Shown: positions 28,307-45,636, counted from the first letter of the stretch. The stretch: DNA of 64,000 bases from an uncultured Candidatus Binatia bacterium (GCA_964291295.2 OZ219754.1:1120001-1184000), one strand, 5' to 3'. Notes: generated from the sequence alone by a model not told the origin. Program-made: numbers and translations.

Positions 28307-30100
28307 TTACTCTGTCTTGCGGCCGCCGAAGGAGCCGCGCAACTCGCCGCTCTTCTTGTCCTTGGACGTGATGTCGAACACGCCGCCCACCTCTTCCGCG
28401 TTCGGTCCGAAGAATTGGCCGCTGTACTCCCTCACCTCGTACTTGCTGCCATCCGCGCTCGTGGCAATACCCATCGCATCACGATGGTTTTGAGCAAGGC
28501 TAGATGCAAAACCCGGTGTATCGTAGCCGTCGCCTTCGGCGTTGACATTGGTCACTTTGCTGCCCGAGAACCCGTTGCCGTCGATGGTGCCGTGGAATGT
28601 GGCGATAATCCCGTCAGTATCGCCCCCTCCTGGATAAAAGACGAAATTCCAAAAAATATCGGTCTTGATGGTGCTTTCCCCGAAATCTACCGTTGTGGTT
28701 GAGGGTCCATCAAAACCGCCGATACTTCCTTTGCCCTCAGCGTGCTGTACGCGCCTCTGCCAAACTGCATGACCCCTGTAGGAGGCGCTGCCGGAGCTTG
28801 GCATGTTGGCAGTCGGGGTAGGGCCCTGGCCGGGCAGTGCCCGGACGAATGAGATGCCAAGGTCGGCCCTCTTGGCCTGTACCTTCTCCGTGTGCCACAT
28901 GCCGTAGTTCATGTGCTCGTAGGGCTTCGCCTCCGGGAAATCCGGCACATCGTAGACGAAAATCTGCCGATAAGTGAATCCCGTGACTCCCTCGTTTCCG
29001 GTGCGCAGAAGCCAGGTCTTTTTCCCGTCGCTATCCGTGTAGTAGTAGACCCCCACGCCCGCATTCGCGTCCGGGGCGTCCGCATTGATCCAGTCCCAGG
29101 AATTCGTCTTGTCGAATTTCGTATCCTCCTGGGTGTCGACAACATAGAACTCGCCCTCCGCCCGCATCACCTTGTAGGTCTGGCTGTCAACCGTGACCCC
29201 GCCGAACGGGTTTTCTGCCGTGATCGTGGCGGTCACCGTGATCGGCTGATCGCTGTCGTCCTTCGCCCTGCGGTAAGACTTCACCGCCTTGCTTTTGGTG
29301 ACATACTTGTCCACCAACCAGAAACGGGACTTCTCCGAGTCGCTGTAGGAACCGAACTCGAAGGTCCGTGGGTGGAACCCCGTCTGGCCAGCCACCTCCG
29401 GCGTGCTGTCGGTCGCCGCCTTGTAAGGGACGGGTTCCTTTCGTTGGGTGGTCCGTGAATTGTCGTTCATGCTGCCTCTCTTGCCGGTCGTGACGGTCTT
29501 GCCCCCGGTGGTGGTTTCGACCGTGGGCGCACCCGCCGTGATGGTCGTGTCGCCGTACCCGTAGGTCATCCCCTCCACATGCCGGACCTCCTTGGTCGCA
29601 GCATCCTTCGCCATCTTCGCCTTCTCCGCCGCCGTCGCCGCCTGAGCCTCGGCCTTCGCCTGCGCCGCCTCGGCCAGCAATTTGGCCTTGGCCGCCACAT
29701 TCACGTCGTTCGTCGCCGCAGCCTTGTCCGATTCCATCTTGGCCTTGTCGTACTCCGCCTTCGCCATGTTCGCCGCCGTCCGGGCCGCCTCCGCGTAGGC
29801 CCTCGCCGTCATCTCCCCATTGGCAACATGGACGGACATGAGGTCCGCAAGCGCCGCTTCCGCCTCATCCGCCGCCGTCCCCGCGTTGTCGGACGCCGTC
29901 TTGGCCTTGCCGGACGCCGTCATGGCCGCCGTCTGAGCCTCCGTCAGGGCCGTCTCGACTTCCGTCGGCGGATCCGGGGTCGTCGCCGTGTTGCTGCTTC
30001 CGCCGCATGCCGCAAGCCCCATGACAAGCACCACCGCGCAGAAGATCGTCGCCAGATTCCCGTACATCATCCTGTACATCAGTATCCTCGTCCTTTTCAT
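28307..30100 (-). CDS. Surface lipoprotein with Ala-rich helical stalk and C-terminal transferrin-binding-protein-B-like beta-barrel
   Basis: Lipobox LAAC followed by GGSS; MPSSGSASYRG, VDFG, GTIDGNGFSG, GQFFGPNAEEVGGVF, GSFGG. Confidence 0.85.
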   Translation of the reverse strand: MKRTRILMYRMMYGNLATIFCAVVLVMGLAACGGSSNTATTPDPPTEVETALTEAQTAAMTASGKAKTASDNAGTAADEAEAALADLMSVHVANGEMTARAYAEAARTAANMAKAEYDKAKMESDKAAATNDVNVAAKAKLLAEAAQAKAEAQAATAAEKAKMAKDAATKEVRHVEGMTYGYGDTTITAGAPTVETTTGGKTVTTGKRGSMNDNSRTTQRKEPVPYKAATDSTPEVAGQTGFHPRTFEFGSYSDSEKSRFWLVDKYVTKSKAVKSYRRAKDDSDQPITVTATITAENPFGGVTVDSQTYKVMRAEGEFYVVDTQEDTKFDKTNSWDWINADAPDANAGVGVYYYTDSDGKKTWLLRTGNEGVTGFTYRQIFVYDVPDFPEAKPYEHMNYGMWHTEKVQAKRADLGISFVRALPGQGPTPTANMPSSGSASYRGHAVWQRRVQHAEGKGSIGGFDGPSTTTVDFGESTIKTDIFWNFVFYPGGGDTDGIIATFHGTIDGNGFSGSKVTNVNAEGDGYDTPGFASSLAQNHRDAMGIATSADGSKYEVREYSGQFFGPNAEEVGGVFDITSKDKKSGELRGSFGGRKTE

Positions 30101-30179
30101 TACCGATCTCCCCTTCCGCCTTCAAAAGCGGCCTCGGTACAATGCTTGGTACGATACCACGGAACTTCCCTCCCGTTAG

Positions 30180-32240
30180 CCCAACTTTACCACCTGGAGT
30201 CCGGTTTGGGCAGGAATCAGGGGTGATTTTGCCGAAATTGGCACGCAAGTCATTGATATATCGTGGGCAGGTTGTCGGGCAGGCGAATGTAGTGCCACAA
30301 AGTACATGCTGGATATTGCTGGGGGTGGCGCACCATGCTGCCACCCTCTCATGTTCATCCGTCGCACCCGTACTCGCAGCAGCAGCGAACCTTACGTCAC
30401 CCACCGCCTGGTGCGCTCCGAACGCGACGGTTCAAAGGTGCGTCAACGCACCCTGCTCAATCTCGGGCGGCACTTCGATGTGGCTCCACAGGAGTGGCCC
30501 GTGCTGTGCCGGCGCATTGAGGAGATGCTTGCCGGTCAACTCCCCCTGTCTCCGGGCTGCCCCCCGGCACTCGAAACCCACGCCCAGCGCATCACCGCCC
30601 AACTCCTTGCCCGGGAGCGCGTCGGCACCGCGACCCCAAGCCAAGGGGGCGACCTCCAGAGCGTGGATGTCGACTCCCTGGAGTTGGTTCGACCACGCTC
30701 GGTGGGCGTCGAGCACGTGGGATTGTGGGCCATGGACCAACTCGGCCTGCGCACCCTGCTCGAACAACTCGGTCTCGGCGCCTCGATGCGCGCGACCGCC
30801 ATCGGCTCGATCATCGCGCGTATGGCGCAGAGCGCGCCACCCGACGCTGGCTCGGCGAACGCAGCGCCTTGGGTGAACTGCTCGGAATGGAGTTCGCCAC
30901 CATGGGACCCATGCGGCTGTATCGCGCCTCCGATGCCCTGATGGCCCACCGCGACGTCATCGAAAAGCATCTGTTCGATCGGGCCATGGACCTGTTCGAG
31001 ATCGAACCCACCGTGACGCTCTACGATCTGACCAACACCTACTTCGAGGGCGCGGCACCCCTCCAACCGAAGGCCCTGCGCGGCCACTCCAAGGACAAGC
31101 GCACCGATTGCCCGCTGCTCACCCTGGGGCTCGTGCTCGACTCCAGCGGCTTCGTGCGCCGCTCCCAGGTCTTTGCCGGCAACGTGCGCGAGCACCACAC
31201 TCTGGCCCGGATGCTGGATGCGCTCAAGGCCCCGCGCGCCGCCCTGGTGGTGATGGACCGGGGCCTCGCTACGAAGAGCGCCTGCAGTGGCTGCGTGAGC
31301 AGGGCTACCGCTACCTGGTGGTCAGCCGTGAACGCAACCGGCACTTCGTCCCTCAGGCGGCACAGCGCATGGAGACCGCTTCCAAGCATGGCATACAATT
31401 GCACAAGGCCCTGTCCCCAGACGGTCGGGAGGTGCGCCTGTACTGCTTCTCCGAACAACGGGCCGCCAAGGAACGCGGCATCGTCGAGCGCTTCGCCCGG
31501 CGCTTCGAGAACGCCCTGAACAAGCTCTCCGAAGGTCTCTCCCGACCCCGTACCCAAAAACGTGTGGAGCAGGTCTGGCAACGTATCGGGCGGCTCAAGG
31601 AGAGCACCCGCGGCATCGCCCAGCACTACGACATCGCACTCGACACCGATGAGTCCGGTCAACGCGCCACCGCCGTGCGCTTCACCCGCCGCCCTCTCCC
31701 CGGCTCGATGAGGACCCATCCCGGCGTCTACTGCCTGCGCAGCAGCGAAACCCACTGGAAGGAAGAAGCCCTGTGGCGTACCTACGTCAGGCTCACCGAC
31801 ATCGAAGCCGTCTTCCGCTCCCTCAAATCCGAACTCGGCCTGCGACCCGTCTACCACCACAAACCACGCCGCTCCGAAGGCCATCTGTTCATCACCGTGC
31901 TCGCCTACCAACTCGTCCAGGTCATCCGTACCCGCCTGCGTCAAGCGGACGAGCACGCCAGTTGGACCACACTACGCCGCGTCCTCCAGGGACAGCAGCG
32001 CGTCACCACCACCTTCCGCCGCGCTGACGGGCGCACCTTGCACGTGCGCAAGGCGACCCGCGCCGAACCAACCCAGCAGGCCATCTACAAAGCCTTGGGC
32101 ATTGATCCCGCTCCCGGAGGAACCCGCAAAACCCTCGTGTAACCAACCCTCAAACACCCACCTGTAGTGCCACTCGCCGCTTCAAGCCACCATAACTATA
32201 TGATATGCAATGTGATCTTTTGGAGAGTGGTAAACTTGGG
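30180..32240 (+). mobile_element. IS1634-family insertion sequence
   Basis: Terminal inverted repeats CCCAACTTTACCAC (30180) and GTGGTAAACTTGGG (32227-32240); flanks TTAG / CTAG; internal TGTAGTGCCAC at 30288 and 32163. Confidence 0.9.
30351..32142 (+). pseudogene. IS1634-family DDE transposase with two frameshifts
   Basis: VRQRTLLNLG, YDLTNTYFEG, GHSKDKR.D, VMDRG, IEAVFRSLKS.LGLRPVYH. Breaks near 30830 (short deletion) and 31272 (1 nt). Confidence 0.9.
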
Positions 32241-34481
32241 CTAGGCCCCGCCCGGCCCCTTCCGATTCATCGCCTCGAACACCTTCTCCGAAGTGATGGG
32301 CAGTGACGTGATCCGGACGCCGCAGGCGTCGGCCACGGCATTGGCGATGGCTCCCGCGGTGGGGATGTTGGCGGTCTCGCCGATGGCCATGCTGTTGTAC
32401 GGTCCGGGACCGCGCCTGTGTTCCGACACCAGGGTGGTCAGTTCCGGAACGTCCCGGATGGTGGGGATCTTGTAGTCGCCGAAATTGGCGGTGGTGACCT
32501 TGCCATCGTCCACCACCAGGTGCTCCATCATGCCGTAGCCGATGCCGGTCATGCTGGCGCCTTCGATCTGCCCCTGGTGCATCAGCGGGTTCAGGATGGT
32601 GCCGGTGCTGTGGCTCGTGACCAGGCGCTTGAGTTCGACATTGCCGGTCTCGGGGTCCACCTCCACTTCGGCGATCTGCGCGCACATGGCCGCATCCGGG
32701 ACCTTGGAGGTGTCGTCGTAGAGCCCTTCGGCCTCGATGGCCGAGCCCTTGGCCTTGACCACGTCGGCATAGCTGATGCCCCGGTCGGTGCTCTTGTGCA
32801 CCACCTTGCCGTCGGAGAGTTCGAGGTCTTCCCCGGGTGCGTCCAGTGCGTTGGCGGCGTGTTCCAGCAGTTGCGCGCGCGTCTTCATGATGCCGTCGTA
32901 GCCGGCGTTGCCGTAGACCCGGGTGCCGCGGCTGCCGCCCAGCCCGGAGTCCTTGATGCCGGCGCTGGTGTCGAAGTGCTCGAACCGGATCCTGTCGGCC
33001 GGGATCTTGAGTTCCTGCTCCGCCATCTGCTCCAGCAGGGTGAAGGTGCCAACGCCTTGGTCCAGCATGGCCGACGAAACCGTCAGAGTGCCGGTATCGT
33101 CGAGCCTGAACTTCACCAGCCCCTTGCCGCCGTTCACCGACCACTGCACGAGCCCGATGCCGCGCCCCACGTTCCTGGGCCGCGGCTCATGGTACTTGAC
33201 CGCGTCGAGGGCCCTGTCGAGAACCGCATGGGAGCCGACATAGTCGATCTTCTCCCCCACCGGAGAGTCCGCCACTCCCTCCAGCAGGTTCTTCTTTCGC
33301 AACTCCGCCGGATCCATGCCCAACGCCTCGGCCAGCAGGTCGAGCTGGCTCTCGTTGGCGAAGAATCCCTGCGGGTCGCCCGGCGAGCGCATGTGTCCGC
33401 ACGGCACCTGGTTGGTGTAGACCATGTGCTCTTCCACCAGCGTGTTGGGCATGTTGTAAGGGCCCGGGGACTTCTGCGGTCCGCCGAGAATGCCGTTGGG
33501 CTTGAACGCGCAGTAGGCGCCGGTGTCGAACACGAAGTCCATGTGATGGGCGGTGATGGTGCCGTCCTTCCTGGCGCCTGTCCGGACCTTGATGATCGAG
33601 GCGTGCCGAGGGTTGCCGGCGATGAACTCCTCGTCGTAGTCCATGACGATCTTCACGGGCCGGCCGCCGCTCTTCTTCGAGAGCGAGTAGCACAGGGCGA
33701 TGTCCATGAAATCGCCCTTGCCGCCGAAGTCGCCGCCGATGTAACAGGGATGGACCACGATGGCCTCCGGATCCACCCGCACGGCGTTGGCCACCTGGTC
33801 GCGGATACCGAAGGGCACCTTGCTGCACGCCCAGATCTCGGCCGCGCCCGTGGCCGGGTCGGTCCGGGCCACGCAGGAGTGCGGCTCGATGTAGGCCTGG
33901 TGCACCTTGGGTGTCGTGAAGGTGTTTTCGACCATGACGTCGGCTTCCTCGAACCCCTTCTCGATGTCGCCCTTCTTCCAGTTGACGTAGATCACCCGGT
34001 TGGTCGGGCCGTCGAGTTTCTGCGGCAGCCCCTTGTAGGTGTGGACCTCCGGGTGCAGCAGCGGCGCCGACGGCTCCATGGCCTCCACCGGATCGAGCAC
34101 CGGGTCCATTTCCTCGTACTCGACCTCGATGAGCCCCACGGCTTCCTCGGCCGCGTCTTCGGTCTCCGCGGAGACCGCCGCCACCTTCTCGCCGATGAAC
34201 CGCACGCGGCCGTCCGCGACGATGGGCATGTCCACCACCCGCCGGCCGATGCGCAGACCGGCGACATCCTCGCCGGTGAGGATGCCGACCACGCCGGGCA
34301 CCTGCAGGGCCCGGCTCGTGTCGATGCGCTTGATGAGGCCGCAGGGAATGGGGCTGCGCAGGATCTTGCCCCAGAGCATGTCCGGGAACGTGACGTCCAC
34401 CGCGTACCTGGCCTTGCCGCTCACCTTGTGCTCTCCGTCGATGCGGGGTGTGGGAACGCCCACGCTGTGTCTTTCCGCCAT
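32241..34481 (-). CDS. Xanthine dehydrogenase-family molybdopterin-binding large subunit
   Basis: KVSGKARY, LRSP, QAYIEPH, GGDFGGKG, MRSPG, DQGVG, GQIEG, DYKIPT, AIGE, AIANAV.DA. Confidence 0.93.
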   Translation of the reverse strand: MAERHSVGVPTPRIDGEHKVSGKARYAVDVTFPDMLWGKILRSPIPCGLIKRIDTSRALQVPGVVGILTGEDVAGLRIGRRVVDMPIVADGRVRFIGEKVAAVSAETEDAAEEAVGLIEVEYEEMDPVLDPVEAMEPSAPLLHPEVHTYKGLPQKLDGPTNRVIYVNWKKGDIEKGFEEADVMVENTFTTPKVHQAYIEPHSCVARTDPATGAAEIWACSKVPFGIRDQVANAVRVDPEAIVVHPCYIGGDFGGKGDFMDIALCYSLSKKSGGRPVKIVMDYDEEFIAGNPRHASIIKVRTGARKDGTITAHHMDFVFDTGAYCAFKPNGILGGPQKSPGPYNMPNTLVEEHMVYTNQVPCGHMRSPGDPQGFFANESQLDLLAEALGMDPAELRKKNLLEGVADSPVGEKIDYVGSHAVLDRALDAVKYHEPRPRNVGRGIGLVQWSVNGGKGLVKFRLDDTGTLTVSSAMLDQGVGTFTLLEQMAEQELKIPADRIRFEHFDTSAGIKDSGLGGSRGTRVYGNAGYDGIMKTRAQLLEHAANALDAPGEDLELSDGKVVHKSTDRGISYADVVKAKGSAIEAEGLYDDTSKVPDAAMCAQIAEVEVDPETGNVELKRLVTSHSTGTILNPLMHQGQIEGASMTGIGYGMMEHLVVDDGKVTTANFGDYKIPTIRDVPELTTLVSEHRRGPGPYNSMAIGETANIPTAGAIANAVADACGVRITSLPITSEKVFEAMNRKGPGGA

Positions 34482-34551
34482 TGGACTCACCTCTGGAAGT
34501 GGTTGAAGATGCGGGTGCCGGAACCCCGGGGACTCACTCGGACCCACGCAC

Positions 34552-36075
34552 TTACTGGACCAGGCGGCTCTCCGGGAACATGAACGAGCGGATGGTGACC
34601 GGGATGACCTCGGTGACTCCCATGGCATTGCCGACGTCGATGAAGTCCAGGTCGCCGACGTCGATGCCGTCGACCGCGATGACCTCCGGTGCCACCTTCA
34701 GCTCTTCCTTGAGGATGCCGCCGAGGGCTTTGGCCACATCCACGTCGAGGATCAGATAGACGTGGAGGTTCGGATCCGCCGGCTCCTCGGCATCGGCGAC
34801 CACCGCGGCGATGCCTTCCGCCACCCGCCGGACGAACCGGTAGTCGGGTACACCCTGGAGACCCAGGGCCAGGGCCAGGCCGGACTTGAAGCGCTCCAGG
34901 TCGAATTTGGCCAGCGCCGTGCGGATGACGCCCTGCACGTCGGAGCCTCCGTCGATGACCGCCTTGACCACCTGCAGGCCGTAGACCGGAAGCGGCGTCC
35001 CGCTGGAGATGTAGCTCGTGTTGCCGCTGGCCTGGATGGTGTACTCGCCGGCGCCGATGACGGTGGCGCGGATGCCCTCCGTGGGCTCCTTGACCAGGTC
35101 CGGCCGGTTGAGCTCGTCGATGCGGTGGCGGATCTCCCTGCCCAGGTAAGGGCCGACATCGCCGCAGGAGGGAGCCTCGTGGTCGTGGATGTGCTCCGAG
35201 ACGCCGCCCGAGAAGACGATGTGGTCGATGCTCTGCAAGCCGTCGTAGTCCGGCAACGGATCGGTCACCCTCAGGCGGGTCTCAAGGTCGGACAGCGGCT
35301 TCGCCTGGATGACGTTGAACAGGTAGTTGCCCATATAGGCGGCCAACGACCTCTTGACGTCGCCGGTGACGACCTGGCCGACCTCCACCGGCATACCCAG
35401 CTCCCTGGTGATGAATCTGGCCGGAAGCTCGACCCGCGTCGCCACGTCGTCTTCGTCAAAAGCGATGAGGCGCGCGCCCACGCTGATGGCGGCCGTCTGG
35501 GTCACGGTGCCGTCGCGAATGACCGACAGCTTGGTGGTGCCGCCGCCCATGTCGATGTTCAACACGGTGGCGCCGGCCGATTTTGACAGTTCCACCGCGC
35601 CGCAGCCATGGGCCGCCAGCAGCGCTTCGTGGTTGGGTCCCGCCGAGGCGCAGATGAACTTGCCGGAATCCTTGGCGAAATACTCGAGGATCGGGCGGGA
35701 GTTCTCCTTGTTGAGGGCCTCCCCCGTGATCACCACGGCGCCGGTGTCGATATCGTCCTGGGTGTAGCCGGCCACGCGGTAGGATTCGTGGATGAACTCC
35801 TCCACCCGGGCCGTGTCGATGAGCGTCCCCGAACTGTACGGCGTCAGCATGATCGGCGAGCGGTAGAGCACCTCCCGGTCGGTGACCCTGAAACGGGCCG
35901 ACAGTCCGGCGCCTTCGCGCCGGAGCGTCAGGTGGGAGAATACGAGATGCGAGGTCGAGGAGCCGATGTCGATGCCCACGCTCGTGAGCGAGAACATCTC
36001 GACTCCTTCGATGTCCTCCACGATGGCATCGGGGCCGGGGTGAAAGTGTTCTGGGTTGTCCGCGTCGTCGTGCAT
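34552..36075 (-). CDS. EutA-like (ethanolamine ammonia-lyase reactivase family) ASKHA ATPase
   Basis: SVGIDIGSSTSHLVFS, YRSPI.LTP, TGAVVITGE, AGPNHEALLA, NIDMGGGTT, FSGGV, IRATVIGAG, DFIDVG. Confidence 0.88.
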   Translation of the reverse strand: MHDDADNPEHFHPGPDAIVEDIEGVEMFSLTSVGIDIGSSTSHLVFSHLTLRREGAGLSARFRVTDREVLYRSPIMLTPYSSGTLIDTARVEEFIHESYRVAGYTQDDIDTGAVVITGEALNKENSRPILEYFAKDSGKFICASAGPNHEALLAAHGCGAVELSKSAGATVLNIDMGGGTTKLSVIRDGTVTQTAAISVGARLIAFDEDDVATRVELPARFITRELGMPVEVGQVVTGDVKRSLAAYMGNYLFNVIQAKPLSDLETRLRVTDPLPDYDGLQSIDHIVFSGGVSEHIHDHEAPSCGDVGPYLGREIRHRIDELNRPDLVKEPTEGIRATVIGAGEYTIQASGNTSYISSGTPLPVYGLQVVKAVIDGGSDVQGVIRTALAKFDLERFKSGLALALGLQGVPDYRFVRRVAEGIAAVVADAEEPADPNLHVYLILDVDVAKALGGILKEELKVAPEVIAVDGIDVGDLDFIDVGNAMGVTEVIPVTIRSFMFPESRLVQ

Positions 36076-36087
36076 GACTCGTGCCGT

Positions 36088-37218
36088 CTACTGTTTGCCC
36101 ATCCCCTTGGACCACTCGTAGTCGGGGTTGGTGTAGGCTTCCTCGTGCATCAGGCTCGTGGTGCCGCGCTTGGCCAGCTCTTCCTCGAACTTGGCCCGGA
36201 TGAAGGGATCCTCGTCCGGATACTCGATCTGGTCCTTGGCCCGGTCTTCGACCTTTTCCGCGTAGCCGTGGAACTGCATGGGCGGATGGAACGCCAGGTA
36301 ACGGGCGGGGGTGGCGCCGGCATTGAAATGCTGGTGGAACCACTTGTTGGGCGGTACGAAGACGCTGGCCTCGTGCCACGGCACGACGATCTTCTCCTTG
36401 TCCTCTTCCCACAGGATCGAGTAGCCCTCGCCCGCGGGGATGACGATCACCCGGCCCGGGCCGTGGCGGTGCGCCTTCTTGTAGGTGCGCGCCGCGAACA
36501 CCGACATGTGGCAGGAGAGTTCGGAGTTGGGGAACTCGATGAACACGCTGTGGCCGCCGGCACCGCGCTTCTTGTTCTCGTCCAGCCTGTCCCATGCTCT
36601 CATGTCCGGGAAGAAATTGCCGTACCAGTAGACACGGCGGTTCCACACGTTCCACTTGCCCGAATCCGTGACCATCTTGGCCTCGGAGTAGAACTCCCCG
36701 TTCTGGGAAGCGATGACGTCCTGGCCGGCGAACGGGTTGTCGAAGAAGAACTCCGGGTCTCCCACCGCGGACATGGCCAGGGGCAGATAGTTGTAGTGCA
36801 GCAGCCGCACGGCCTTGTCCCCCTGCATGTTGTGGAGGGTGTAGTGGTAGTTGCGCGGCACGATGAACATGCTGTTGTTGTGCCACTCGAAGGTTTTTTT
36901 GGTGCCGCTGTCGTCGCGCCACACGGTGGTGGCGCCCCTGCCCTCCACCACATAGACGACCTCGTCGAGGGCGAATCTTATGGGCGGCGTGGACTCGCCC
37001 GGGGCGACCTCCTGGATCCAGGCGCCGGTCACGCCTTCCTGGCCCATGAGCTGCATGAAGGCGGCCTTGCACTTGCGGTCTTCCCACCATTCGAGGTCGC
37101 AAGTGCGCAGGTCGCCGATGAAGTAGCCGGTGTGGATCGGAATCCCCAAGGACTCCATCCAGTGGTCGTAGGTGAAACGGGTCTTCTCCGTGACGGCACC
37201 GCTGATGTCTTCTCCCAT
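36088..37218 (-). CDS. Bicupin protein (gentisate-1,2-dioxygenase-like fold)
   Basis: Two cupin repeats: EVVYVVEGRG...FIVPRN and KAHRHGPG...GEGYS...PPNKWFHQHFN. Confidence 0.85.
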   Translation of the reverse strand: MGEDISGAVTEKTRFTYDHWMESLGIPIHTGYFIGDLRTCDLEWWEDRKCKAAFMQLMGQEGVTGAWIQEVAPGESTPPIRFALDEVVYVVEGRGATTVWRDDSGTKKTFEWHNNSMFIVPRNYHYTLHNMQGDKAVRLLHYNYLPLAMSAVGDPEFFFDNPFAGQDVIASQNGEFYSEAKMVTDSGKWNVWNRRVYWYGNFFPDMRAWDRLDENKKRGAGGHSVFIEFPNSELSCHMSVFAARTYKKAHRHGPGRVIVIPAGEGYSILWEEDKEKIVVPWHEASVFVPPNKWFHQHFNAGATPARYLAFHPPMQFHGYAEKVEDRAKDQIEYPDEDPFIRAKFEEELAKRGTTSLMHEEAYTNPDYEWSKGMGKQ

Positions 37219-37336
37219 GGATCGCTCCTTGAAGTTGAATTTTGCGAGAACGCCCCCGTTCGGGGAACGAAGCCCCTCTGTTCTGGGAACAGGAACGGGC
37301 CGGCGGCCGGCCTGTTCCGAGGCAACAGGAGTCGTT

Positions 37337-37442
37337 TTTATAGCGTTCCGCGGCACCCGGGGTCAAGACCGCGCCTCCGGGGAGCGTTCCCCCAGCCGGC
37401 TCCGGCGTCCGTGTTGACAGAGGGGGCTTACTCTGTGAGGAT
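37337..37442. promoter_or_regulatory. Divergent sigma70-like promoters (cupin operon / dxs)
   Basis: Minus strand TTGACC-N18-TATAAA (37366-37337); plus strand TTGACA (37414)-N17-GAGGAT with a TG extension. Confidence 0.4.
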
Positions 37443-37518
37443 TCCTGTTCTTTCGGCGCATGCTCCCCATGAACCATCCACCGGGTCCATTTTGCCTTGT
37501 CAGCGGCGAGGATCGACT

Positions 37519-39429
37519 ATGCCCATCCTGACGAGGGTCGGCCAGCCGGCCGACCTCAAGAACCTCTCTCCCGAGCAGTTCCCGCAACTCTGCGAGGATA
37601 TCCGCGAGCGGATCATCTCGGTCATATCCAATGTCGGCGGACACCTCGCCTCCAATCTCGGCGTCGTCGAACTGACCGTCGCCCTTCACTACCTGCTGGA
37701 CACGCCCCGGGATCTCATCGTCTGGGATACCGGCAACCAGTCCTACGCCCACAAGCTGCTGACCGGGCGTCAGGCGCAGTTCCACACCATCCGTCAACTC
37801 GGCGGGTTGAGCGGATTCTGCAAGCGCGAGGAGAGCGAGTACGATACGTTCAATGCCGGCCACGCCGGCACCGGCGTCTCCGCCGCGGCGGGATTCGTGG
37901 AAGCCCGCGAACAGCGGCAACAGGACCACAAGGTGGTCTGCGTGGTCGGCGACGGCGCGCTGACCTCGGGCCTCACCATGGAGGGGCTCCAGCAGGCCGG
38001 CGGCCTGAAGCGGGATCTCCTGGTGATCCTCAACGACAACCAGATGTCCATCTCCAGGAACGTGGGCGCCATCTCGGCGTACCTCAACCGCACCATCACG
38101 GGAGAGTTCTTCGACCGGATCACCGAGGAGACCAAGCGGGTCCTGGGCAAGGTGCCGCACATCGGCGATCGGGTGCAGAGACTGGCCGGACGAGCTCAGG
38201 AATTGGTGAAGGGGCTGTTGCTGCCCGGTCTTCTGTTCGAGGAACTCGGGTTCCGGTACGTGGGCCCCATCGACGGCCATCAGTTCGAGCACCTGCTGCC
38301 GACCCTGGAGAACGTGCTCAAGCTGGAGGGGCCGACGCTGCTGCACGTGGTTACCAGGAAGGGGCAGGGCTACGGCCCGGCCATGGAAAACCCCGTGCGG
38401 TTCCACGCCAGTTCGCCCTTCGACCGTGATACCGGCCAGCCCAGGAAGAAATCCGCCACGCCCTCTTATGGCAGCATCGCCGTCGACGCCCTGGTTCGAC
38501 TGGCCCGGGAAGATCCGCGCATCGTCGCCATTACCGCGGCCATGGCCGAGGGAACGGGTTTGGCCGCGTTCGAAAAGCTCTTTCCCGAGCGGTTCTATGA
38601 CGTCGGCATTGCCGAGCAGCACGCCGTCACCTTTGCCGCGGGGCTGGCGGTGCAGGGCATGCGGCCGGTGATCCCCATCTACTCGACCTTCCTGCAGCGG
38701 GGCTACGACCAGATCGTCCACGACGTCGCCACCCAGAATCTCCCGGTGACGTTCTGCATCGACCGCGCCGGGCTGGTGGCCGAGGACGGCACCACCCACC
38801 ACGGGGCGTTCGACCTGGCGTACCTTCGGCATGTGCCGAACATGGTGGTGATGGCGCCCAAGGACGAGAACGAGTTGCAGCACATGGTGAAGTCGTGCGT
38901 CAGTTGCGGCAGGCCCGCGGCGGTGCGCTATCCGCGCGGAGCGGGGCTGGGCGTGGACATGGACCCGGCGCCGCGGGCGCTGCCGCTGGGCCAGGGCGAA
39001 CTGGTCCGGGACGGCACGGACATCGCGCTGGTAGCCATCGGCGTGACCGTGCACCTGGCGGCGGCGGCGGCCGAACGGATGGCCCGGGAGGGAATTTCCG
39101 CCGCCGTGATCAACGCGCGGTTCGTCAAGCCGCTCGACGGCGATCTGATCGCCCGGGTGGCCGGGCAGGTGAAGTGTCTGCTGACGGTGGAGGAATCGAC
39201 CGTCATGGGCGGATTCGGGTCCGCCGTTCTCGAACTGTTGTCGCACCGGGGCATCGTCAACCTGGCGACGAAATGCCTGGGATTGCCGGACCGCTACATC
39301 GAGCAGGGGCCGCAGGATGTGCTGCGCGAGAAATACGGGTTGACGGCCGACGGGATCCACCGGCAGGCCAGGGGGTTGCTCGCGCAAGCCGGCACCCCGG
39401 CGCAGGCCGCCCCGCCGCCAGGAACCTGA
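37519..39429 (+). CDS. dxs: 1-deoxy-D-xylulose-5-phosphate synthase
   Basis: GGHLASNLGVVELT, GDGA...LNDN, YVGPIDGH, DVGIAEQH, YSTFLQRGYD, DRAG, DGTTH, RYPRG. Confidence 0.96.
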   Translation: MPILTRVGQPADLKNLSPEQFPQLCEDIRERIISVISNVGGHLASNLGVVELTVALHYLLDTPRDLIVWDTGNQSYAHKLLTGRQAQFHTIRQLGGLSGFCKREESEYDTFNAGHAGTGVSAAAGFVEAREQRQQDHKVVCVVGDGALTSGLTMEGLQQAGGLKRDLLVILNDNQMSISRNVGAISAYLNRTITGEFFDRITEETKRVLGKVPHIGDRVQRLAGRAQELVKGLLLPGLLFEELGFRYVGPIDGHQFEHLLPTLENVLKLEGPTLLHVVTRKGQGYGPAMENPVRFHASSPFDRDTGQPRKKSATPSYGSIAVDALVRLAREDPRIVAITAAMAEGTGLAAFEKLFPERFYDVGIAEQHAVTFAAGLAVQGMRPVIPIYSTFLQRGYDQIVHDVATQNLPVTFCIDRAGLVAEDGTTHHGAFDLAYLRHVPNMVVMAPKDENELQHMVKSCVSCGRPAAVRYPRGAGLGVDMDPAPRALPLGQGELVRDGTDIALVAIGVTVHLAAAAAERMAREGISAAVINARFVKPLDGDLIARVAGQVKCLLTVEESTVMGGFGSAVLELLSHRGIVNLATKCLGLPDRYIEQGPQDVLREKYGLTADGIHRQARGLLAQAGTPAQAAPPPGT

Positions 39430-39500
39430 AAGACCGCGCGGCCGCCCGCGCCGAAGGTTGCCCGGCGGCCCGCCCGCAAGACCCGTCGTTCGCCGCCAGT

Positions 39501-40511
39501 CTAGCTGCTGCCGGCCCCGGGCGCCCTGCCCGCGGAGTCGTCCGTCCTGTCTCCGGGTAGAATCTGCGCGCCGGCCTCCGCCAACTCCGGCGGCAGCTTG
39601 AAGGTGACATTCTCCGCGGCGCCCTCGTGGTTGGTCAGGGTGACGTCGAACAGTTCGCGGAGCCGGTCCACCAGGCCCTGAACCAACTCTTCCGGTGCCG
39701 AGGCGCCGGCGGTGATCCCGACGGTGCGCGCCCCGCGCAGCCAAGCCGGGTCCAGGCTCCCGGCATCCGGTATCAGGTGGCTTGCGGTTCCGGCCTCGCC
39801 GCCGATCTCGCGCAGGCGGTTCGAGTTGGAACTGTAGTCGGCGCCGATGACCAGGATCACGTCGGACTCGGCTGCCAGCCGGCGCACCTCTGCCTGCCGG
39901 TTTTGCGTGGCGTAGCAGATGTCCTTCAGGTCGGGGCCCCGGATCTCGGGGAAGCGGGCCTTGAGCGCGGCGATGATCTCGCGGGTGTCGTCGACGCTGA
40001 GGGTCGTCTGTGTCACGTAGGCGAGCTTCGCCGGGTCCGCCGGTTCCAGCGCGGCCACATCCGCCGCCGCGGACACCAGGTGCACCGTTCCCGGCACCTG
40101 CCCCATGGTGCCCTCGACCTCCGGGTGCCCCGCATGTCCTACGAGAACGATCTCGTAGCCCTGCCGCGCGTAGCGTTGCGCCTCCATGTGCACCCTGCTG
40201 ACCAGCGGGCAGGTGGCGTCGATGACCTGGAGGGCACGGCCGCCGGCGGCGTCCTCCACCTTGCGGGATACGCCGTGAGCGCTGAATACGGTCACCGCTC
40301 CCTCGGGGATTTCGGAGACCTCGTCCACGAAGCGCGCGCCCTTTTCGCGCAGCAGATCGACCACGTGCTTGTTGTGGACGATCTCGTGCCGCACATAGAC
40401 GGGAGCTCCGTAGAGCCGGAGCGCGCGCTCCACGATGTCCACGGCTCTCACCACGCCGGCGCAGAAACCTCTCGGCTGCGCCAGGATGATTTGCAAGGGT
40501 TGTTTTGCCAC
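39501..40511 (-). CDS. ispH: 4-hydroxy-3-methylbut-2-enyl diphosphate reductase
   Basis: [51 protein letters not shown]. Confidence 0.97.
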
Positions 40512-40932
40512 GGGCCACACTCCGGTGCCGCCTCCGGTGCCGCCGCGCGGGCGCGCCGGCACACGCATGTCAGCACACACGTACCACTATGCAGCAGCCG
40601 CGCCGAGGGGTCAACGATCATCCCGCCGGAACAGTCTCTCGTCGTATCCTTTCTCGACCGGCGGCCGGCCGCCGCGCCGCCCAGGCAAGATCCGAACAAC
40701 CCCGAGCCCGCTTGGGCTGAATCAACAAGATCAACAGGTTGCAAGCTATTCTTCCTGTCGCGCCATCTCCTTGTTCAGCCCTTCCCTTGAAGGCGAAACC
40801 GTCCCGTGGACACCGCGCCGTCTCCCCCTCGCGGCAGCGAAACCGTCTCATGGACACCGCAATCGGCTTGCGAATCGGGCTTCCGAACGGACGGCTGAAC
40901 CTGCCCGCGCCGGCCACGAGCCCTGGATCGGA

Positions 40933-42228
40933 TCATCTCCCTCCCCTTCCGCCGCCGAGGGACTGTCCGGGAGAGAACCGTCCGATGACCGCGCGCGCGG
41001 CCGCGCGGCCCGACCGTATGGCGCTCTCGATGGTCGCGGGCAGTCCGGTATCGATCCAGTCCCCGGCCAGGTAGACGTTGCCGAAACGGGTCCGGGTGCC
41101 GGGGCGCAGCCTTGCCTGCGCGGGGGTCTGCGCGAAGGTGGCCTGTTTCTCCTTGACAACGCGGTACGGCGGCACCGGTTCCGGGGCGTGTCCGAGGGCG
41201 GCGGCGACGTCTCGCCAAGTCTGCCGGGCGATGGCGCCGGCCTCCTGGTCGATCATGGTGTCGGCCGCGCTGATGGTGACGGAAGCCACGTCGCCGCGAA
41301 CGAAGAGCCACTGCGCCGTTCCGCCGATCAGCCCGAGGAACGGCAGCGCCGGCGGCAGGCGGGCGGGTTCGGACAGGCGGAAGTGGGCATTGACAATGGC
41401 GTGGCTCCGCTCCGGAACGGTCAGGTCCGGCACCAGGCTGGCCGCGCCCGAAGGCGGCAGCGCCAGGACCACGTTGTCGCCGTGGTCCAGGTTTGCCGTG
41501 GCCGTTCCGAAGTCCAGGCCGTGCGCCCGGTCGACGCCGTAGGCGATGCCGCGCAACCGTGCTCCGAACCGGACCGCGGCCCCGTGCCGGCGCAGGAACT
41601 CCAGGGCAGGGTCCACGAAGGTTGCGGATAGGCCCGTTCGGGCGATTCGCGGCCGGCAGGCGGCTTCGCCCCCGCCGAAGGTCTCGCGCAGCACCGGCCA
41701 CAGCAGGCGCGCGGCGCCTGCCCGCACCGGGCTGTTCAGCACCGCCACCGCCAGAGGTTCCCAGAAGCGCTCGAACAGGACGCCGCGGTCGCCCAGGCAG
41801 TCGGCCACGGTGCGGTCCGCGCCGGCGGTGGCGAGACGGAGAGCCGCCAGATAGTCCCGCACGCGGCTGCCGGGGACGCGCCGCCGTGGGTCCAGGATCC
41901 ACCACGGCAGCCTCCCGGCATTGGGCCGCAGCCGCCAGCGCCGGCCCGTGCGCAGGTCGAGGAAGGGGAAGCAGGCCGGAGAGGGTCCCACCAGCGCGTC
42001 GCCGGCGCCGATGTCCGTCAGATAGCGCAGGGTGGAGCGGTTGCCGCTCAGCAGCAGGTGGTTGCCGTTGTCGATGGCGCGCCCGAGTCGGGTGTCGAAC
42101 CAGGACCGGCAGCGGCCGCCGGCCTGTCCGGCCGCTTCGTGCAGGGTGACGGTCCGCCCCGCGCGGGCGAGCGACACCGCGGTGGAAAGGCCGGCCAGAC
42201 CGGCGCCGATGACGTGAGTCCGGGCCAC
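40933..42228 (-). CDS. hpnE: Hydroxysqualene dehydroxylase
   Basis: IGAGLAGL, GGRCRS, IDNGNHLLLSGN, EKQATF, LAGDW..TGLPATIE; follows hpnCD. Confidence 0.93.
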   Translation of the reverse strand: MARTHVIGAGLAGLSTAVSLARAGRTVTLHEAAGQAGGRCRSWFDTRLGRAIDNGNHLLLSGNRSTLRYLTDIGAGDALVGPSPACFPFLDLRTGRRWRLRPNAGRLPWWILDPRRRVPGSRVRDYLAALRLATAGADRTVADCLGDRGVLFERFWEPLAVAVLNSPVRAGAARLLWPVLRETFGGGEAACRPRIARTGLSATFVDPALEFLRRHGAAVRFGARLRGIAYGVDRAHGLDFGTATANLDHGDNVVLALPPSGAASLVPDLTVPERSHAIVNAHFRLSEPARLPPALPFLGLIGGTAQWLFVRGDVASVTISAADTMIDQEAGAIARQTWRDVAAALGHAPEPVPPYRVVKEKQATFAQTPAQARLRPGTRTRFGNVYLAGDWIDTGLPATIESAIRSGRAAARAVIGRFSPGQSLGGGRGGR

Positions 42229-42241
42229 CGGGGGAAGGCCG

Positions 42242-43105
42242 TCAGAGAAGCCCGTGACGCAGGGCGACCCATACCTGGCGCGCCCGGTTGAGCCGGACCG
42301 GGCTGTCGATGCGCGTCCAGCCCCGTTCTTCCAGACACCGGAGCGTCTCCCGGTACACCGCCATCATCAGCACGATGGGCCGCCTCTGGCGCCATCCCAG
42401 CCGGGACAGCAGGCGGTCGGCGCCGGCGTAGTGTTCCCGCGCCAACGCCGCCAGCTCCGCGCACGCCGCGGCAAAGCCGGGATGGCGGCAGACGGCGCTC
42501 GCGGAACTCTCCGCCACCCCGTGCCGCCGCACCATCTCCAGCGGGACATAGAGGCGGTCGATGGCCGCGTCTTCCTTGACGTCGCGCAGAATGTTGGTGA
42601 GCTGCACGGCGTTTCCGAGGGTCTCGGCGATGCGGTAGCCGGGTTCCCGGGGCACTCCGAAGGCGTGGATGGACAGCCGGCCCACCGCGCCGGCCACCTT
42701 GCGGCAGTAGTGCAGCAGTTCGTCCAGCGTGTGCATCCGGACCGTGGCGGCCACGTCGGTCTCCACCCCGTCGATGACGGCGAGGAACGCCTCCCGCGGC
42801 AGTTCGAATCGCCGCACCGGCAGCAACAGCGCCCGGGTGGTGGGCCGGCGCGGCGCGCCCGCGTACAGGTGCGCCACCTCTTCCCGCCAGGCCGCCAGCC
42901 CCCGCCTCTTTTCCGCGGTCGCCGCGGTCTCGTCGGCGATGTCGTCCACCTCGCGGCAGAACGCATAGATGGCGTACATGGCGCGCCGCCGCTCCGCCGG
43001 CAACACCCGCATGCCCCAGAGGAAAGAGGTGCCCGACCGCGCCACCACGCGGCGCACATGGGTCCAGGGTTCGCCGCTGTCGTGCCCGGCGCTATCGGCG
43101 TCCAT
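42242..43105 (-). CDS. hpnD: Presqualene diphosphate synthase
   Basis: SGTSF, YAFCREVDDIAD, YCRKVAGAVG, QLTNILRDVKED, RLYVP. Confidence 0.93.
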   Translation of the reverse strand: MDADSAGHDSGEPWTHVRRVVARSGTSFLWGMRVLPAERRRAMYAIYAFCREVDDIADETAATAEKRRGLAAWREEVAHLYAGAPRRPTTRALLLPVRRFELPREAFLAVIDGVETDVAATVRMHTLDELLHYCRKVAGAVGRLSIHAFGVPREPGYRIAETLGNAVQLTNILRDVKEDAAIDRLYVPLEMVRRHGVAESSASAVCRHPGFAAACAELAALAREHYAGADRLLSRLGWRQRRPIVLMMAVYRETLRCLEERGWTRIDSPVRLNRARQVWVALRHGLL

Positions 43106-43973
43106 TGGATGGATTTCGGCGGCGCCTGCCGAACAGCACGCGGCCAATGCCGCGCGCACCGCAGGCCGCCAACTGCGTCCGGGTCAGCACCACTCGTTCG
43201 GCCAGGGGGTCGCGTCGGCGCAATTCCCTGGCGAGCTTGCGGGCGATGGCGACGATGACGGCCGCCTCCATGGCGAATCGCCGGTTGCCCAGTTGCCCGG
43301 GCAGGTGGCCGGCCTGCCGCAGCAGGCTGTGGGTGCGGTCGAGGCAACGGTCCAGCACCTGTCGCAGCGCGGCGCTGGCGCGGTCTGCGCCCAGGGCCTC
43401 CGCGGCAGCGCCCGCGGCGTTCATCCAGTCCCGCGGCAGATAGACCCGATCGAGCGACCGGTAGTCGCCGCCGCAATCCTGCAGGTGGTTGAGCACCTGC
43501 AGGGCGTTGCAGAGAGCATCGGAAGCCGGGTAGGCCGTCGCCGGCTCCCCGTGCAGGTCCACGAGGTAGCGGCCCACCGGAGCGGCCGAGAGGTTGCAGT
43601 ACCTCATCAGGTCATCCCAGTCGTCGTAGCGCCGCTTCACCGCGTCCTGCCTGAACGCCCGGGTCAGGTCCACGAAGTGGCGGTGCGTCACCCCGGTCTC
43701 CGCCAGGCTCCGGCGGAGTTCGTGGGCCTTGCGGAAGGCCGGGTCCGTCGTCTCGGCACCGCTCACGGCCGCGGCGAAGCCCTCCAGGCGGACGACCTTG
43801 TCGGAGGGCTCCAGGTCGGGGTTGTCGGCGATGTCGTCGATGGCCCGGGCGCAAGCGTAGAAGGCTGCGATGTGCGGCCGCAGCCGCGCCGGCAAAAGCC
43901 GGGAGCCGACGGGGAAATTTTCGTCCGCCGCAACCTTGCCGGACGGTGTCTCAATGGTGGCTGAATCGGCCAT
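43092..43973 (-). CDS. hpnC: Hydroxysqualene synthase
   Basis: ENFPVGS, DDIAD, AFRQD, YC.LSAAPVGR, LQVLNHLQD, RVYLP. Confidence 0.94.
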   Translation of the reverse strand: MADSATIETPSGKVAADENFPVGSRLLPARLRPHIAAFYACARAIDDIADNPDLEPSDKVVRLEGFAAAVSGAETTDPAFRKAHELRRSLAETGVTHRHFVDLTRAFRQDAVKRRYDDWDDLMRYCNLSAAPVGRYLVDLHGEPATAYPASDALCNALQVLNHLQDCGGDYRSLDRVYLPRDWMNAAGAAAEALGADRASAALRQVLDRCLDRTHSLLRQAGHLPGQLGNRRFAMEAAVIVAIARKLARELRRRDPLAERVVLTRTQLAACGARGIGRVLFGRRRRNPSNGRR

Positions 43974-44336
43974 CGGATATTCAAGAGGAAAATGCGCGGG
44001 GAAACTGCGCCTGCTGCAAGCGCCTGCCGCAGCGTACGAGCTGCGCAGGCTATCACGAAGGGAACCGCGTGTCAGCCTGAACAAGGGGAGCTGAGGACAG
44101 GGGAACTGAGGACATTCCCACGCTGCGGCGATGCGGATGAAGCAGGCCGGTTGCGGATCGATGGGTGCCCGCACCGATTCGAGAAGAGGGGGTATCAGGC
44201 TAAATCAAATCGCAAATTTGAAATAGCGCGAACTTGAACAGACCCATCCGATTCCATTCGGTGTCGGGTGGTGAGAGATCATGCCGGTCTCGTCGAGGAT
44301 TAGCCGCCGGCCTTCGGGAGGTTCCGGTATTCTGAA

Positions 44337-44379: not shown

Positions 44380-45636
44380 ATGGCGTCCTTTGAACGACCC
44401 CACCTTGTCACTCTTCTTTGCCGATTGGGCGAGGCTCCGCGGCGGTTGATCCTGATCGCCGGGCCGCGGCAGGTGGGCAAAACCACGCTGATCGAGCAGG
44501 CAAAGGAAAAGCTCGACCGCGACCTTCTGCTTGTGCGCGTGGACGAGCCCGGATCGAGATACTTGCCTGCCACAGCCGCCGATACTGCCGCTGCAGGCCC
44601 GGTGCCGCGGGAACCGGACGGGAGATGGCTCGCGGACTTGTGGGAGCGGGCTCGACGGGACGCCGACCGGTCGGAACGGGGGCTTGTGCTGGCACTCGAC
44701 GAAATTCAGAAAGTGCCGGACTGGTCGGAAATCGTCAAAGGCCTCTGGGATGCAGACCGCTACGAGCAACGCCGTTTGCATGTCATCCTGTCAGGTTCAG
44801 CGCCACTGTTGATGCAGCAGGGCCTGACCGAGAGCTTGCAGGGGCGCTTCGAGACCATCCAGCTCAAGCACTGGTCTTTTACCGAAATGGCCGCGGCGTT
44901 CGGTGTTGACGTGGATCGATATGTCTACTTCGGCGGTTGGCCGGGTGCGGCAGGCTACATGCACGACCACGGTCGCTGGCAGGACTACCTGGTACGAGCG
45001 TTGATGGAGCCCAACATCGAGCGTGACATTCTGGCCATGCAACGAGTCGACAAGCCCGCGTTGTTGAAACGGCTGTTCGAGGTCGGCGCCACATCCTCCG
45101 GACAGATTCTGTCCTACAGAAAATTGCAGGGTCAACTCCAGGACGCGGGCAACACCACGACCTTGGCCCGCTATCTCGACCTGCTGGAGAAGGCAGGTTT
45201 GATCGCAGGCTTGCAGAACTACCGTGCCGGCATCGATCGATTCAGGGCTTCCAGCCCGAAGCTCAACGTGCTCAACACCGCGTTGATGTCGGCCCTGTCC
45301 GGTTACACGTTCGAGGAAGCCCGTGCGGATCGAACCTTCTGGGGACGTCTGGTGGAAAGCGCCGTCGGCGCCCACCTCTGGAACAGCGCCGCTGCGCCGA
45401 CCCGCCTCTGGTACTGGCGGCGACACGGCTCCGAGGTGGACTTCGTGCTGGAACGAGGGCCGCGGTTGGCGGCATTCGAGGTCAAGAGTGGTGAGGGATC
45501 TGCCGGCCGGCGCAGGCTGGAAGGCTTCCGTGAGCACTATAGTCACCGCCCGGTGAAAGCCGAGACGGTCGGCGGCGACGGTGTACCGTTGGCAGAGTTC
45601 CTGGCAACTCACGCGGACGACTGGTTCAGGACATGA
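44380..45636 (+). CDS. AAA_14-type ATPase with wHTH and C-terminal DUF4143 PD-(D/E)XK-like domain
   Basis: GPRQVGKTT, LALDEIQ, LSGS, ESLQGRF, GGWP, YLDLLEKAGLI, GRLVESAV, YWR...EVDFV...FEVKSG. Confidence 0.92.
   Translation: MASFERPHLVTLLCRLGEAPRRLILIAGPRQVGKTTLIEQAKEKLDRDLLLVRVDEPGSRYLPATAADTAAAGPVPREPDGRWLADLWERARRDADRSERGLVLALDEIQKVPDWSEIVKGLWDADRYEQRRLHVILSGSAPLLMQQGLTESLQGRFETIQLKHWSFTEMAAAFGVDVDRYVYFGGWPGAAGYMHDHGRWQDYLVRALMEPNIERDILAMQRVDKPALLKRLFEVGATSSGQILSYRKLQGQLQDAGNTTTLARYLDLLEKAGLIAGLQNYRAGIDRFRASSPKLNVLNTALMSALSGYTFEEARADRTFWGRLVESAVGAHLWNSAAAPTRLWYWRRHGSEVDFVLERGPRLAAFEVKSGEGSAGRRRLEGFREHYSHRPVKAETVGGDGVPLAEFLATHADDWFRT

Follow-up and report, generated by a model that had tools for sequence, protein, structure and literature searches.

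In a 64,000-nucleotide (nt) stretch of DNA from an uncultured Candidatus Binatia bacterium (OZ219754.1, positions 1120001 to 1184000; the whole stretch is called the window here), three genes on the minus strand encode a two-barrel cupin (bicupin), an ATPase of the EutA family, and the large subunit of a molybdenum (Mo) hydroxylase (Table 1). The window has a guanine-plus-cytosine (GC) content of about 66%, and its nearest relatives are Candidatus Binatia genomes with about 90% protein identity. An earlier reading of this DNA, made from the sequence alone (the sequence-only reading), described three co-oriented genes separated by 12 and 70 nt, and our open reading frame (ORF) calls and coordinates agree with that layout. 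It also took the three genes together as a functional operon. Comparison with related loci shows that the conserved unit is the cupin and EutA-like pair, not the three-gene set. The cupin and EutA-like genes are probably cotranscribed.

Table 1. Positions of the cupin/EutA-like module and adjoining features in the window
Feature	Position	Strand	Description
Bicupin	36088-37218	-	376 amino acids; N terminus MGEDISG
EutA-family (PF06277) ASKHA ATPase, cupin-linked clade	34552-36075	-	507 amino acids; N terminus MHDDADNPEHFH
Mo-hydroxylase (xanthine oxidase family) large subunit	32241-34481	-	746 amino acids from an internal ATG; GAGG-type ribosome-binding site
His/acidic N-terminal tail, EutA-like codons 1-30	35986-36075	-	Met-His-Asp start, MHDDADNPEHFH...; missing from canonical EutA
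Spacer, cupin stop to EutA-like start	36076-36087	-	12 nt
Gap, EutA-like gene to Mo gene	34482-34551	-	70 nt
Divergent intergenic region, cupin gene to dxs	37219-37518	.	300 nt
dxs	37519-39429	divergent from cupin gene	Upstream; followed by ispH, hpnE, hpnD, hpnC

Conservation of the cupin and EutA-like pair

Relatives were collected by scanning one genome per species, which gave 502 confirmed for the EutA-like protein. The best 80 loci, at 55 to 90% identity, were kept and are designated by L numbers below; these are the most similar ones, they come from Binatia and Chloroflexota with most in one phylum, and they are not independent of each other. At 73 of the 80 loci, the EutA-like gene had a cupin homolog no more than 4 kb away, and 67 cupin copies were directly upstream of that gene, co-oriented with it, and less than 400 nt away. 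At 24 Binatia loci, two cupin paralogs (63 to 80% identical) stood beside a single ATPase gene. In L066 (11581-12683), the downstream cupin gene was split into ORFs of 196 and 171 amino acids, which is probably a frameshift or a pseudogene.

The pair was also found outside these two phyla. Using tblastn against plasmids, we detected both genes in the same order on megaplasmids of Sinorhizobium terangae, S. mexicanum, S. chiapasense, and Phyllobacterium zundukense, that is, on all four that held either gene. Identity to the window proteins was 32 to 33% for the cupin and 38 to 39% for the ATPase. The rhizobial replicons NZ_CP104971.1, NZ_CP121660.1, NZ_CP041241.1, and NZ_CP133152.1 had two matching places each for the cupin and the EutA-like protein, and the four rhizobial cupins were 86% identical between genera, an identity that may reflect horizontal transfer. 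In Phyllobacterium, the annotated genes are those for TctA-TctB-TctC, a thiamine diphosphate (ThDP) enzyme, a 3-hydroxyisobutyrate-dehydrogenase-like reductase, a "hypothetical protein" that is the cupin, "EutA," and a LysR regulator. The S. terangae locus has TctA- and TctB-sized ORFs (called by size and position, with no NCBIfam match), two unassigned ORFs, the cupin, the ATPase, and LysR. With its TctABC and LysR genes, and in Phyllobacterium the ThDP enzyme and the beta-hydroxyacid dehydrogenase-like gene, the rhizobial context suggests a small carboxylate substrate.

Elsewhere, the surroundings of the pair differed from lineage to lineage. At about 46 Binatia-type loci (within L016 to L065; for example, L024, 2700-11506), the pair lies directly downstream of atpF-H-A-G-D-C in the same orientation, with one or two EamA transporter genes, a second cupin paralog, a small cupin, and an enolase-superfamily gene often coming next. 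Because this arrangement is absent from the window's own clade, from Chloroflexota, and from rhizobia, we set aside a functional tie to the ATP synthase operon and regard the position as probably inherited, phylum-level synteny. The neighbors in Chloroflexota were unrelated (ribosomal and translation genes, RidA, Rieske oxygenases, and amidohydrolases). In the Dehalococcoidia loci L075 (18429-20540), L076 (17700-20420), and L077, a second, divergent EutA-like gene is separated from the first by about 8 kb. The L076 copy has a second cupin gene directly upstream, and the second ATPase starts MHDEPWAHVHD. Because the adjacency of the cupin and EutA-like genes recurs across phyla, it is not due to chance. 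Thus, the link to the cupin drawn in the sequence-only reading extends to 73 of the 80 loci and to the rhizobial plasmids.

The EutA-like ATPase and the bicupin

The EutA-like protein matched Pfam PF06277 (EutA) with an E value of 4e-109, residues 30 to 500 aligning with profile positions 3 to 474 of 475, and it was 32.7% identical to Escherichia coli EutA over 483 amino acids (E 4e-58). Despite this full-length homology, it scored below all four NCBIfam EutA cutoffs (313.6 versus 598 bits for NF007992; 241.6 versus 769, 207.8 versus 952, and 206.6 versus 799 bits for the others). The ASKHA motifs were stated to be intact, and in our alignments phosphate-1 (D36-x-G38-x-x-T41), phosphate-2 (D175-x-G177-G-G-T180), and the adenosine motif (G290-G291) were invariant in both the cupin-linked and the eutBC-linked proteins. 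Residues C142, K182, and R53 were specific to the cupin-linked clade compared with canonical EutA. An AlphaFold2 (AF2) model of the protein had a predicted local distance difference test (pLDDT) score of 66 and matched generic ASKHA folds with low template modeling (TM) scores, among them ROK kinases, butyrate kinase, and Ppx/GppA. Some EutA-like homologs carried weak Hydantoinase_A or BcrAD_BadFG Pfam labels. The N-terminal extensions of about 200 amino acids in some EutA-family representatives contained no recognizable Pfam domain.

The known client of canonical EutA is ethanolamine ammonia-lyase (EAL), encoded by eutB and eutC. Pfam scans of the 21 plus 33 called ORFs of the window found no eutB, eutC, bacterial microcompartment, or B12-binding domain, and tblastn with E. 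coli EutB, EutC, EutL, EutM, EutJ, and EutT gave no matches at an E value of 1e-3 or less in the window and the 80 related loci (1.365 Mb). Both searches agree with the earlier statement that the 64 kb hold no eutB, eutC, B12, or microcompartment gene. All eight canonical EutA loci that we fetched had eutBC, adjoining eutA in seven and separated from it by a prophage in E. coli K-12. The weaker plasmid matches (29 to 33% identity) were canonical EutAs, and each one inspected adjoins eutBC, as seen from annotation in Natronorubrum, Haladaptatus, Cetobacterium, and Listeria and from tblastn in Brevibacillus and Acetoanaerobium.

Phylogeny gave the same division. An exhaustive HMMER search yielded 2,535 clusters at an E value of 1e-3 or less, and the 140 full-length representatives closest to the window protein were combined with 93 sequences from loci of known context in a FastTree phylogeny of 233 rows. 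The seven eutBC-linked EutAs fell on one side of a branch (support, 99), and all 79 cupin-linked rows fell in a 216-row group on the opposite side (support, 99). In an IQ-TREE phylogeny (LG+C20, quick search, 57 rows), the eutBC-linked rows split off with a Shimodaira-Hasegawa-like approximate likelihood ratio test (SH-aLRT) value of 99, and all cupin-linked rows lay within a 43-row group, also at 99; both trees are unrooted, and those seven are the only canonical sequences sampled. The window protein was placed in the separate supported group, outside the eutBC-linked branch, and 130 of the 140 representatives grouped with the cupin-linked rather than the eutBC-linked sequences. The sequence-only reading had held that this EutA homolog is not a canonical EAL reactivase and had proposed phylogeny and neighborhood analysis as a check. 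The sub-cutoff NCBIfam score and the position in the trees bear out that view, and all the cupin-linked homologs stand apart from the eutBC-linked branch. Thousands of proteins in this family carry the database name "ethanolamine ammonia-lyase reactivating factor EutA," a label that is probably wrong for the cupin-linked clade.

The two groups also differ at their N termini. Canonical EutAs begin 6 to 9 residues before the phosphate-1 loop, whereas the cupin-linked proteins have about 30 residues more. This tail is rich in His and acidic residues, and H2 and D4 were invariant in alignment A1. At least two His residues occurred in the 45 amino acids before the phosphate-1 loop (GIDIG motif) in 78 of 78 cupin-linked proteins and in 7 of 7 linked to neither partner but in none of 7 eutBC-linked proteins. 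At the DNA level, a start codon followed by His and then Asp or Glu codons was present in 74/79 cupin-linked genes versus 0/7 eutBC-linked genes, so that the acidic, His-containing tail pointed out earlier is a hallmark of the cupin-linked clade. The exceptions among the cupin-linked genes start MDHD, MSDGHD, or MWLDDHD, and in some unplaced relatives the tail is very rich in His, with, for example, repeated His-Asp or His-Gly.

The cupin has no Pfam or NCBIfam model for its own family. Pfam returned only a weak Cupin_2 match (7.6e-08) in the N-terminal barrel, and the NCBIfam models for 5-aminosalicylate and gentisate 1,2-dioxygenase scored far below threshold (32.5 versus 650 bits and 17.1 versus 442.1 bits). 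In PDB searches, similarity to gentisate 1,2-dioxygenase (3bu7) was marginal (E 0.0097 with the single sequence and 2.9e-4 with a profile). The AF2 model (pLDDT, 67; predicted TM score, 0.75) has two strand-rich barrels and is that of a bicupin. Its best Foldseek matches in the PDB were OxdC, MncA, and vicilins (TM, about 0.45; E, about 1e-15), and the ESM Atlas matches were unnamed cupin clusters only.

The cupin is very strongly conserved and has a candidate metal site. Identity among 29 aligned homologs was 64 to 94%, and in the C-terminal barrel H237, Y246, K248, H250, H252, H295, H297, N299, and R306 were invariant, including in the rhizobial proteins. H237, H250, H252, H295, H297, and N299 were kept in 67/67 upstream copies, 25/25 downstream copies, and 2/2 rhizobial proteins. 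The metal motif, H250-x-H252 with H295-x-H297-x-N299, is present in the C-terminal barrel only; the equivalent positions of the N-terminal barrel are F, L, D, or E and vary, in line with the earlier observation that only the second cupin domain keeps a His metal site. The protein thus shares with gentisate 1,2-dioxygenase-type bicupins and OxdC the two-barrel fold, and its HRH...H-x-H-x-N motif aligns with the C-terminal barrel of 3bu7. It differs from them in its marginal sequence similarity, in having the metal site in the C-terminal and not the N-terminal barrel, and in a conserved, acidic C-terminal extension (about amino acids 311 to 350).

The Mo-hydroxylase and the surrounding genes

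The third gene of the window encodes a protein with the Pfam domains Ald_Xan_dh_C, MoCoBD_1, and MoCoBD_2, the three-domain architecture of 4-hydroxybenzoyl-coenzyme A (CoA) reductase alpha and CoxL-type large subunits. Its closest PDB relative was 1rm6_A (1e-87). Unlike those enzymes, it scored below every NCBIfam equivalog cutoff (the best, 4-hydroxybenzoyl-CoA reductase alpha, at 450.8 versus 994.55 bits), and no genes for the 2Fe-2S or flavin adenine dinucleotide (FAD) partner subunits were found among the called ORFs of the 64-kb window or in close relatives, whose loci spanned 21 kb. As a large subunit, it is an orphan.

Of the 15 closest loci, 13 had the Mo gene after the pair, and 2 are on contigs that stop before the position where it would be seen. 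The more distant 65 had it only once, in the Chloroflexi locus L072, at 35% identity and with an enoyl-CoA hydratase gene between. In seven close relatives (L001, L002, L005, L006, L007, L011, and L012), an FGE-sulfatase-like gene on the opposite strand lies just downstream of the EutA-like gene, and in the five of these seven where the Mo gene is visible (5 of the 13) it separates the EutA-like and Mo genes. Because this gene intervenes in five relatives, the tight 70-nt arrangement in the window is a local state. The Mo gene is a lineage-specific neighbor and not a member of the module, and the proposal in the sequence-only reading of a three-gene functional unit with the molybdoenzyme as a client was not supported by this comparison.

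The region between the cupin gene and dxs is presumably the promoter site of the cupin and EutA-like module. No Rfam element or sigma-70 consensus match was found in it, an Rfam scan of the window found no riboswitch or other RNA, and promoter and terminator scans of the window had no informative outcome. On the other side of this region, an isoprenoid-hopanoid cluster (37519-44174) adjoins the module and comprises dxs, ispH, hpnE (amine oxidase family), and two SQS_PSY genes of the hpnD/hpnC type. Close relatives keep this cluster, with dxs and ispH present in L001 to L014.

The Mo gene is followed by IS1634-family transposase fragments (30142-32142), of which 31108-32142 matches model positions 222 to 482 only, and then by a lipoprotein-like gene (28307-30100, minus strand) for 597 amino acids with a C-terminal TbpB_B_D domain (Slam-dependent surface lipoprotein-like). 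In close relatives, the Mo gene is followed instead by apaG, an M20 peptidase gene, and a luciferase-like gene, and the lipoprotein/transposase block of about 4.4 kb looks like an insertion. Beyond the hopanoid genes, an AAA_14/DUF4143 ATPase gene (44380-45636, plus strand) precedes a gene (45633-49760, plus strand) for a 1,375-amino-acid NACHT protein that scored 856 bits against the NCBIfam antiphage model EruA (cutoff, 1,000). The GC content is lower here (about 0.61), which suggests a defense islet.

A possible helper protein and its client

Taken together, these results point to the EutA-like protein and the cupin as an undescribed ATP-driven helper-and-client pair. Our literature search, whose coverage excluded subscription journals, found no paper pairing a EutA-like ATPase with a cupin. 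We tentatively favor, at a level short of calling it probable, the proposal that the cupin has in this ATPase a dedicated factor for metal loading or reactivation. The two-gene module would then encode a metal-binding bicupin enzyme followed by its own EutA-family ASKHA ATPase, which would do for the cupin what EutA does for EAL, with a metal replacing cobalamin. Binding and hydrolysis of ATP would open the cupin client, the cofactor at the His cluster of the C-terminal barrel would be loaded, or swapped when damaged, and the Met-His-Asp/His-rich tail would carry the metal. That cupin and ATPase interact physically, that the cupin receives metal or is reactivated, and which metal is involved are points that we infer.

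Several observations favor this proposal. The two genes are paired across phyla, and the EutA-like protein is placed apart from canonical EutA. Judged by sequence, the invariant ASKHA motifs would make the protein a competent ATPase, the Met-His-Asp/Glu tail hints at a metal, and the putative client has a predicted metal site whose His cluster is kept even at 33% identity. The 24 two-paralog loci might represent one ATPase serving two clients. A precedent by analogy is cofactor exchange by EutA, which, as described in PMC9426561, swaps damaged cobalamin for adenosylcobalamin on EAL in an ATP-dependent manner, the client being encoded by a neighboring gene. The EutA-like protein has in common with EutA its full-length homology, its ASKHA motifs, and a proposed role as an ATP-driven factor for one client encoded next to it. 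It differs in belonging to a cupin-linked clade without eutBC, B12, or microcompartment genes, in forming a separate tree group, in its tail of about 30 amino acids, and in having a bicupin as its partner. The diol and glycerol dehydratase reactivases DdrAB, PduGH, and GdrAB are ASKHA/Hsp70-like ATPases that free the damaged cofactor from their client, which is similar to the role proposed here. They belong to another family, however, with two subunits and B12-dependent clients, and none was among the sequence or fold matches of the EutA-like ATPase.

The tail also resembles parts of nickel metallochaperones, the N-terminal MHE motif of HypA and the His-rich tails of HypB and UreE, in that its Met-His-acidic N terminus leads into a His/Asp-rich stretch. 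PMC7055735 describes the N-terminal MHE motif of HypA as binding Ni(II), with the N-terminal amine and His2 as ligands. The Met-His-acidic extreme N terminus common to this nickel site and the cupin-linked tail is a shared sequence only. HypA is a small Zn-ribbon protein with a CXXC zinc domain whose nucleoside triphosphatase partner is a GTPase/ATPase of another fold, whereas the putative site here is in the tail of the ASKHA ATPase itself, and Pfam and NCBIfam scans matched no HypA family.

Other points weigh against a metal-loading or reactivating role. The likeness to HypA amounts to three residues plus composition and is not homology. No cupin was found within 4 kb in 7 of the 80 loci (L023, L036, L071, L073, L074, L079, and L080), so the ATPase gene can occur without a nearby cupin. 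Since the 80 loci are not independent, independent occurrences come down roughly to those in Binatia, in Chloroflexota, and in rhizobia, plus the second pair of Dehalococcoidia. Both AF2 models are only moderate (pLDDT, 66 to 67), and no fusion of cupin and ATPase was found among proteins of 889 to 2,535 amino acids, although this is weak evidence. Furthermore, the strong conservation of both proteins (about 60% and about 67% identity between phyla) fits a stable two-subunit enzyme equally well.

Such an enzyme is the main rival, and we consider it unlikely. It would be a single ATP-dependent enzyme in which the ASKHA kinase-like subunit phosphorylates or activates a small substrate and the cupin isomerizes, cleaves, or decarboxylates the intermediate, by analogy with the ASKHA subunits of hydantoinase, oxoprolinase, and acetone carboxylase. 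Besides the very high conservation of both partners, it would account for the catabolic look of the rhizobial loci; sugar and acid kinases are among the proteins with the ASKHA fold, and the matches to ROK kinases, butyrate kinase, and Ppx/GppA, together with the weak Hydantoinase_A and BcrAD_BadFG labels, point the same way. However, the protein is a full-length homolog of EutA, which is known for protein reactivation and not for substrate phosphorylation, and its clade-specific His-rich tail has no obvious use in a kinase. Two cupin paralogs for one ATPase gene at 24 loci also fit this enzyme poorly, and outside rhizobia the neighbors are housekeeping or unrelated genes.

The remaining alternatives fare worse. 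That the pair is kept by inherited synteny only, its proteins not cooperating, is very unlikely: most of the 80 loci do come from one phylum, where the pair also follows the ATP synthase operon, but the same pair in the same order occurs in Chloroflexota and Alphaproteobacteria at 32 to 39% identity and in otherwise unrelated contexts, with short gaps (12 nt in the window) and, in Dehalococcoidia, duplicated as a unit. We give still less credence to the Mo-hydroxylase as the client, with the ATPase inserting or reactivating the molybdenum cofactor in a three-gene operon for (hetero)aromatic compounds. The two genes are on the same strand 70 nt apart, no terminator-like site was found on the gene strand between them, and 13 close relatives, as well as L072 independently, have the Mo gene after the pair. 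Against this, 64 of the 65 more distant loci lack it, as do the rhizobial loci, the opposite-strand FGE-sulfatase-like gene is present in seven close relatives, and no FeS or FAD partner subunits are nearby. An ordinary EutA serving EAL or another B12 enzyme encoded elsewhere, with the cupin incidental, is the least credible and largely refuted, since the strong PF06277 match and the "EutA" database labels are outweighed by scores below all four NCBIfam cutoffs, a position outside the eutBC-linked branch, no EutB or EutC match in the 1.365 Mb of the window and the 80 related loci versus eutBC at all eight canonical loci fetched, and cupin linkage kept across phyla. Some other function than these takes up the rest of the probability.

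Returning to the ATPase as a metal-loading or reactivating factor for the cupin, a broader and more doubtful version of that proposal is that a large branch of the EutA family consists of actin-fold metallochaperones or reactivases, in which a HypA-like tail would carry the metal and ATP would drive its insertion or renewal in a dedicated bicupin family. If the ATPase does mature or repair the cupin, it would be the first ASKHA-fold metallochaperone, or the first reactivase of this fold for a non-B12 enzyme, and the reactivase principle would be extended from B12 enzymes to mononuclear metalloenzymes. The pair occurs in cultured, tractable hosts, S. terangae and P. zundukense, which makes the idea directly testable. 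If true, it would also open a way to work out what this unnamed, highly conserved bicupin family of Binatia, Chloroflexota, and rhizobia does.

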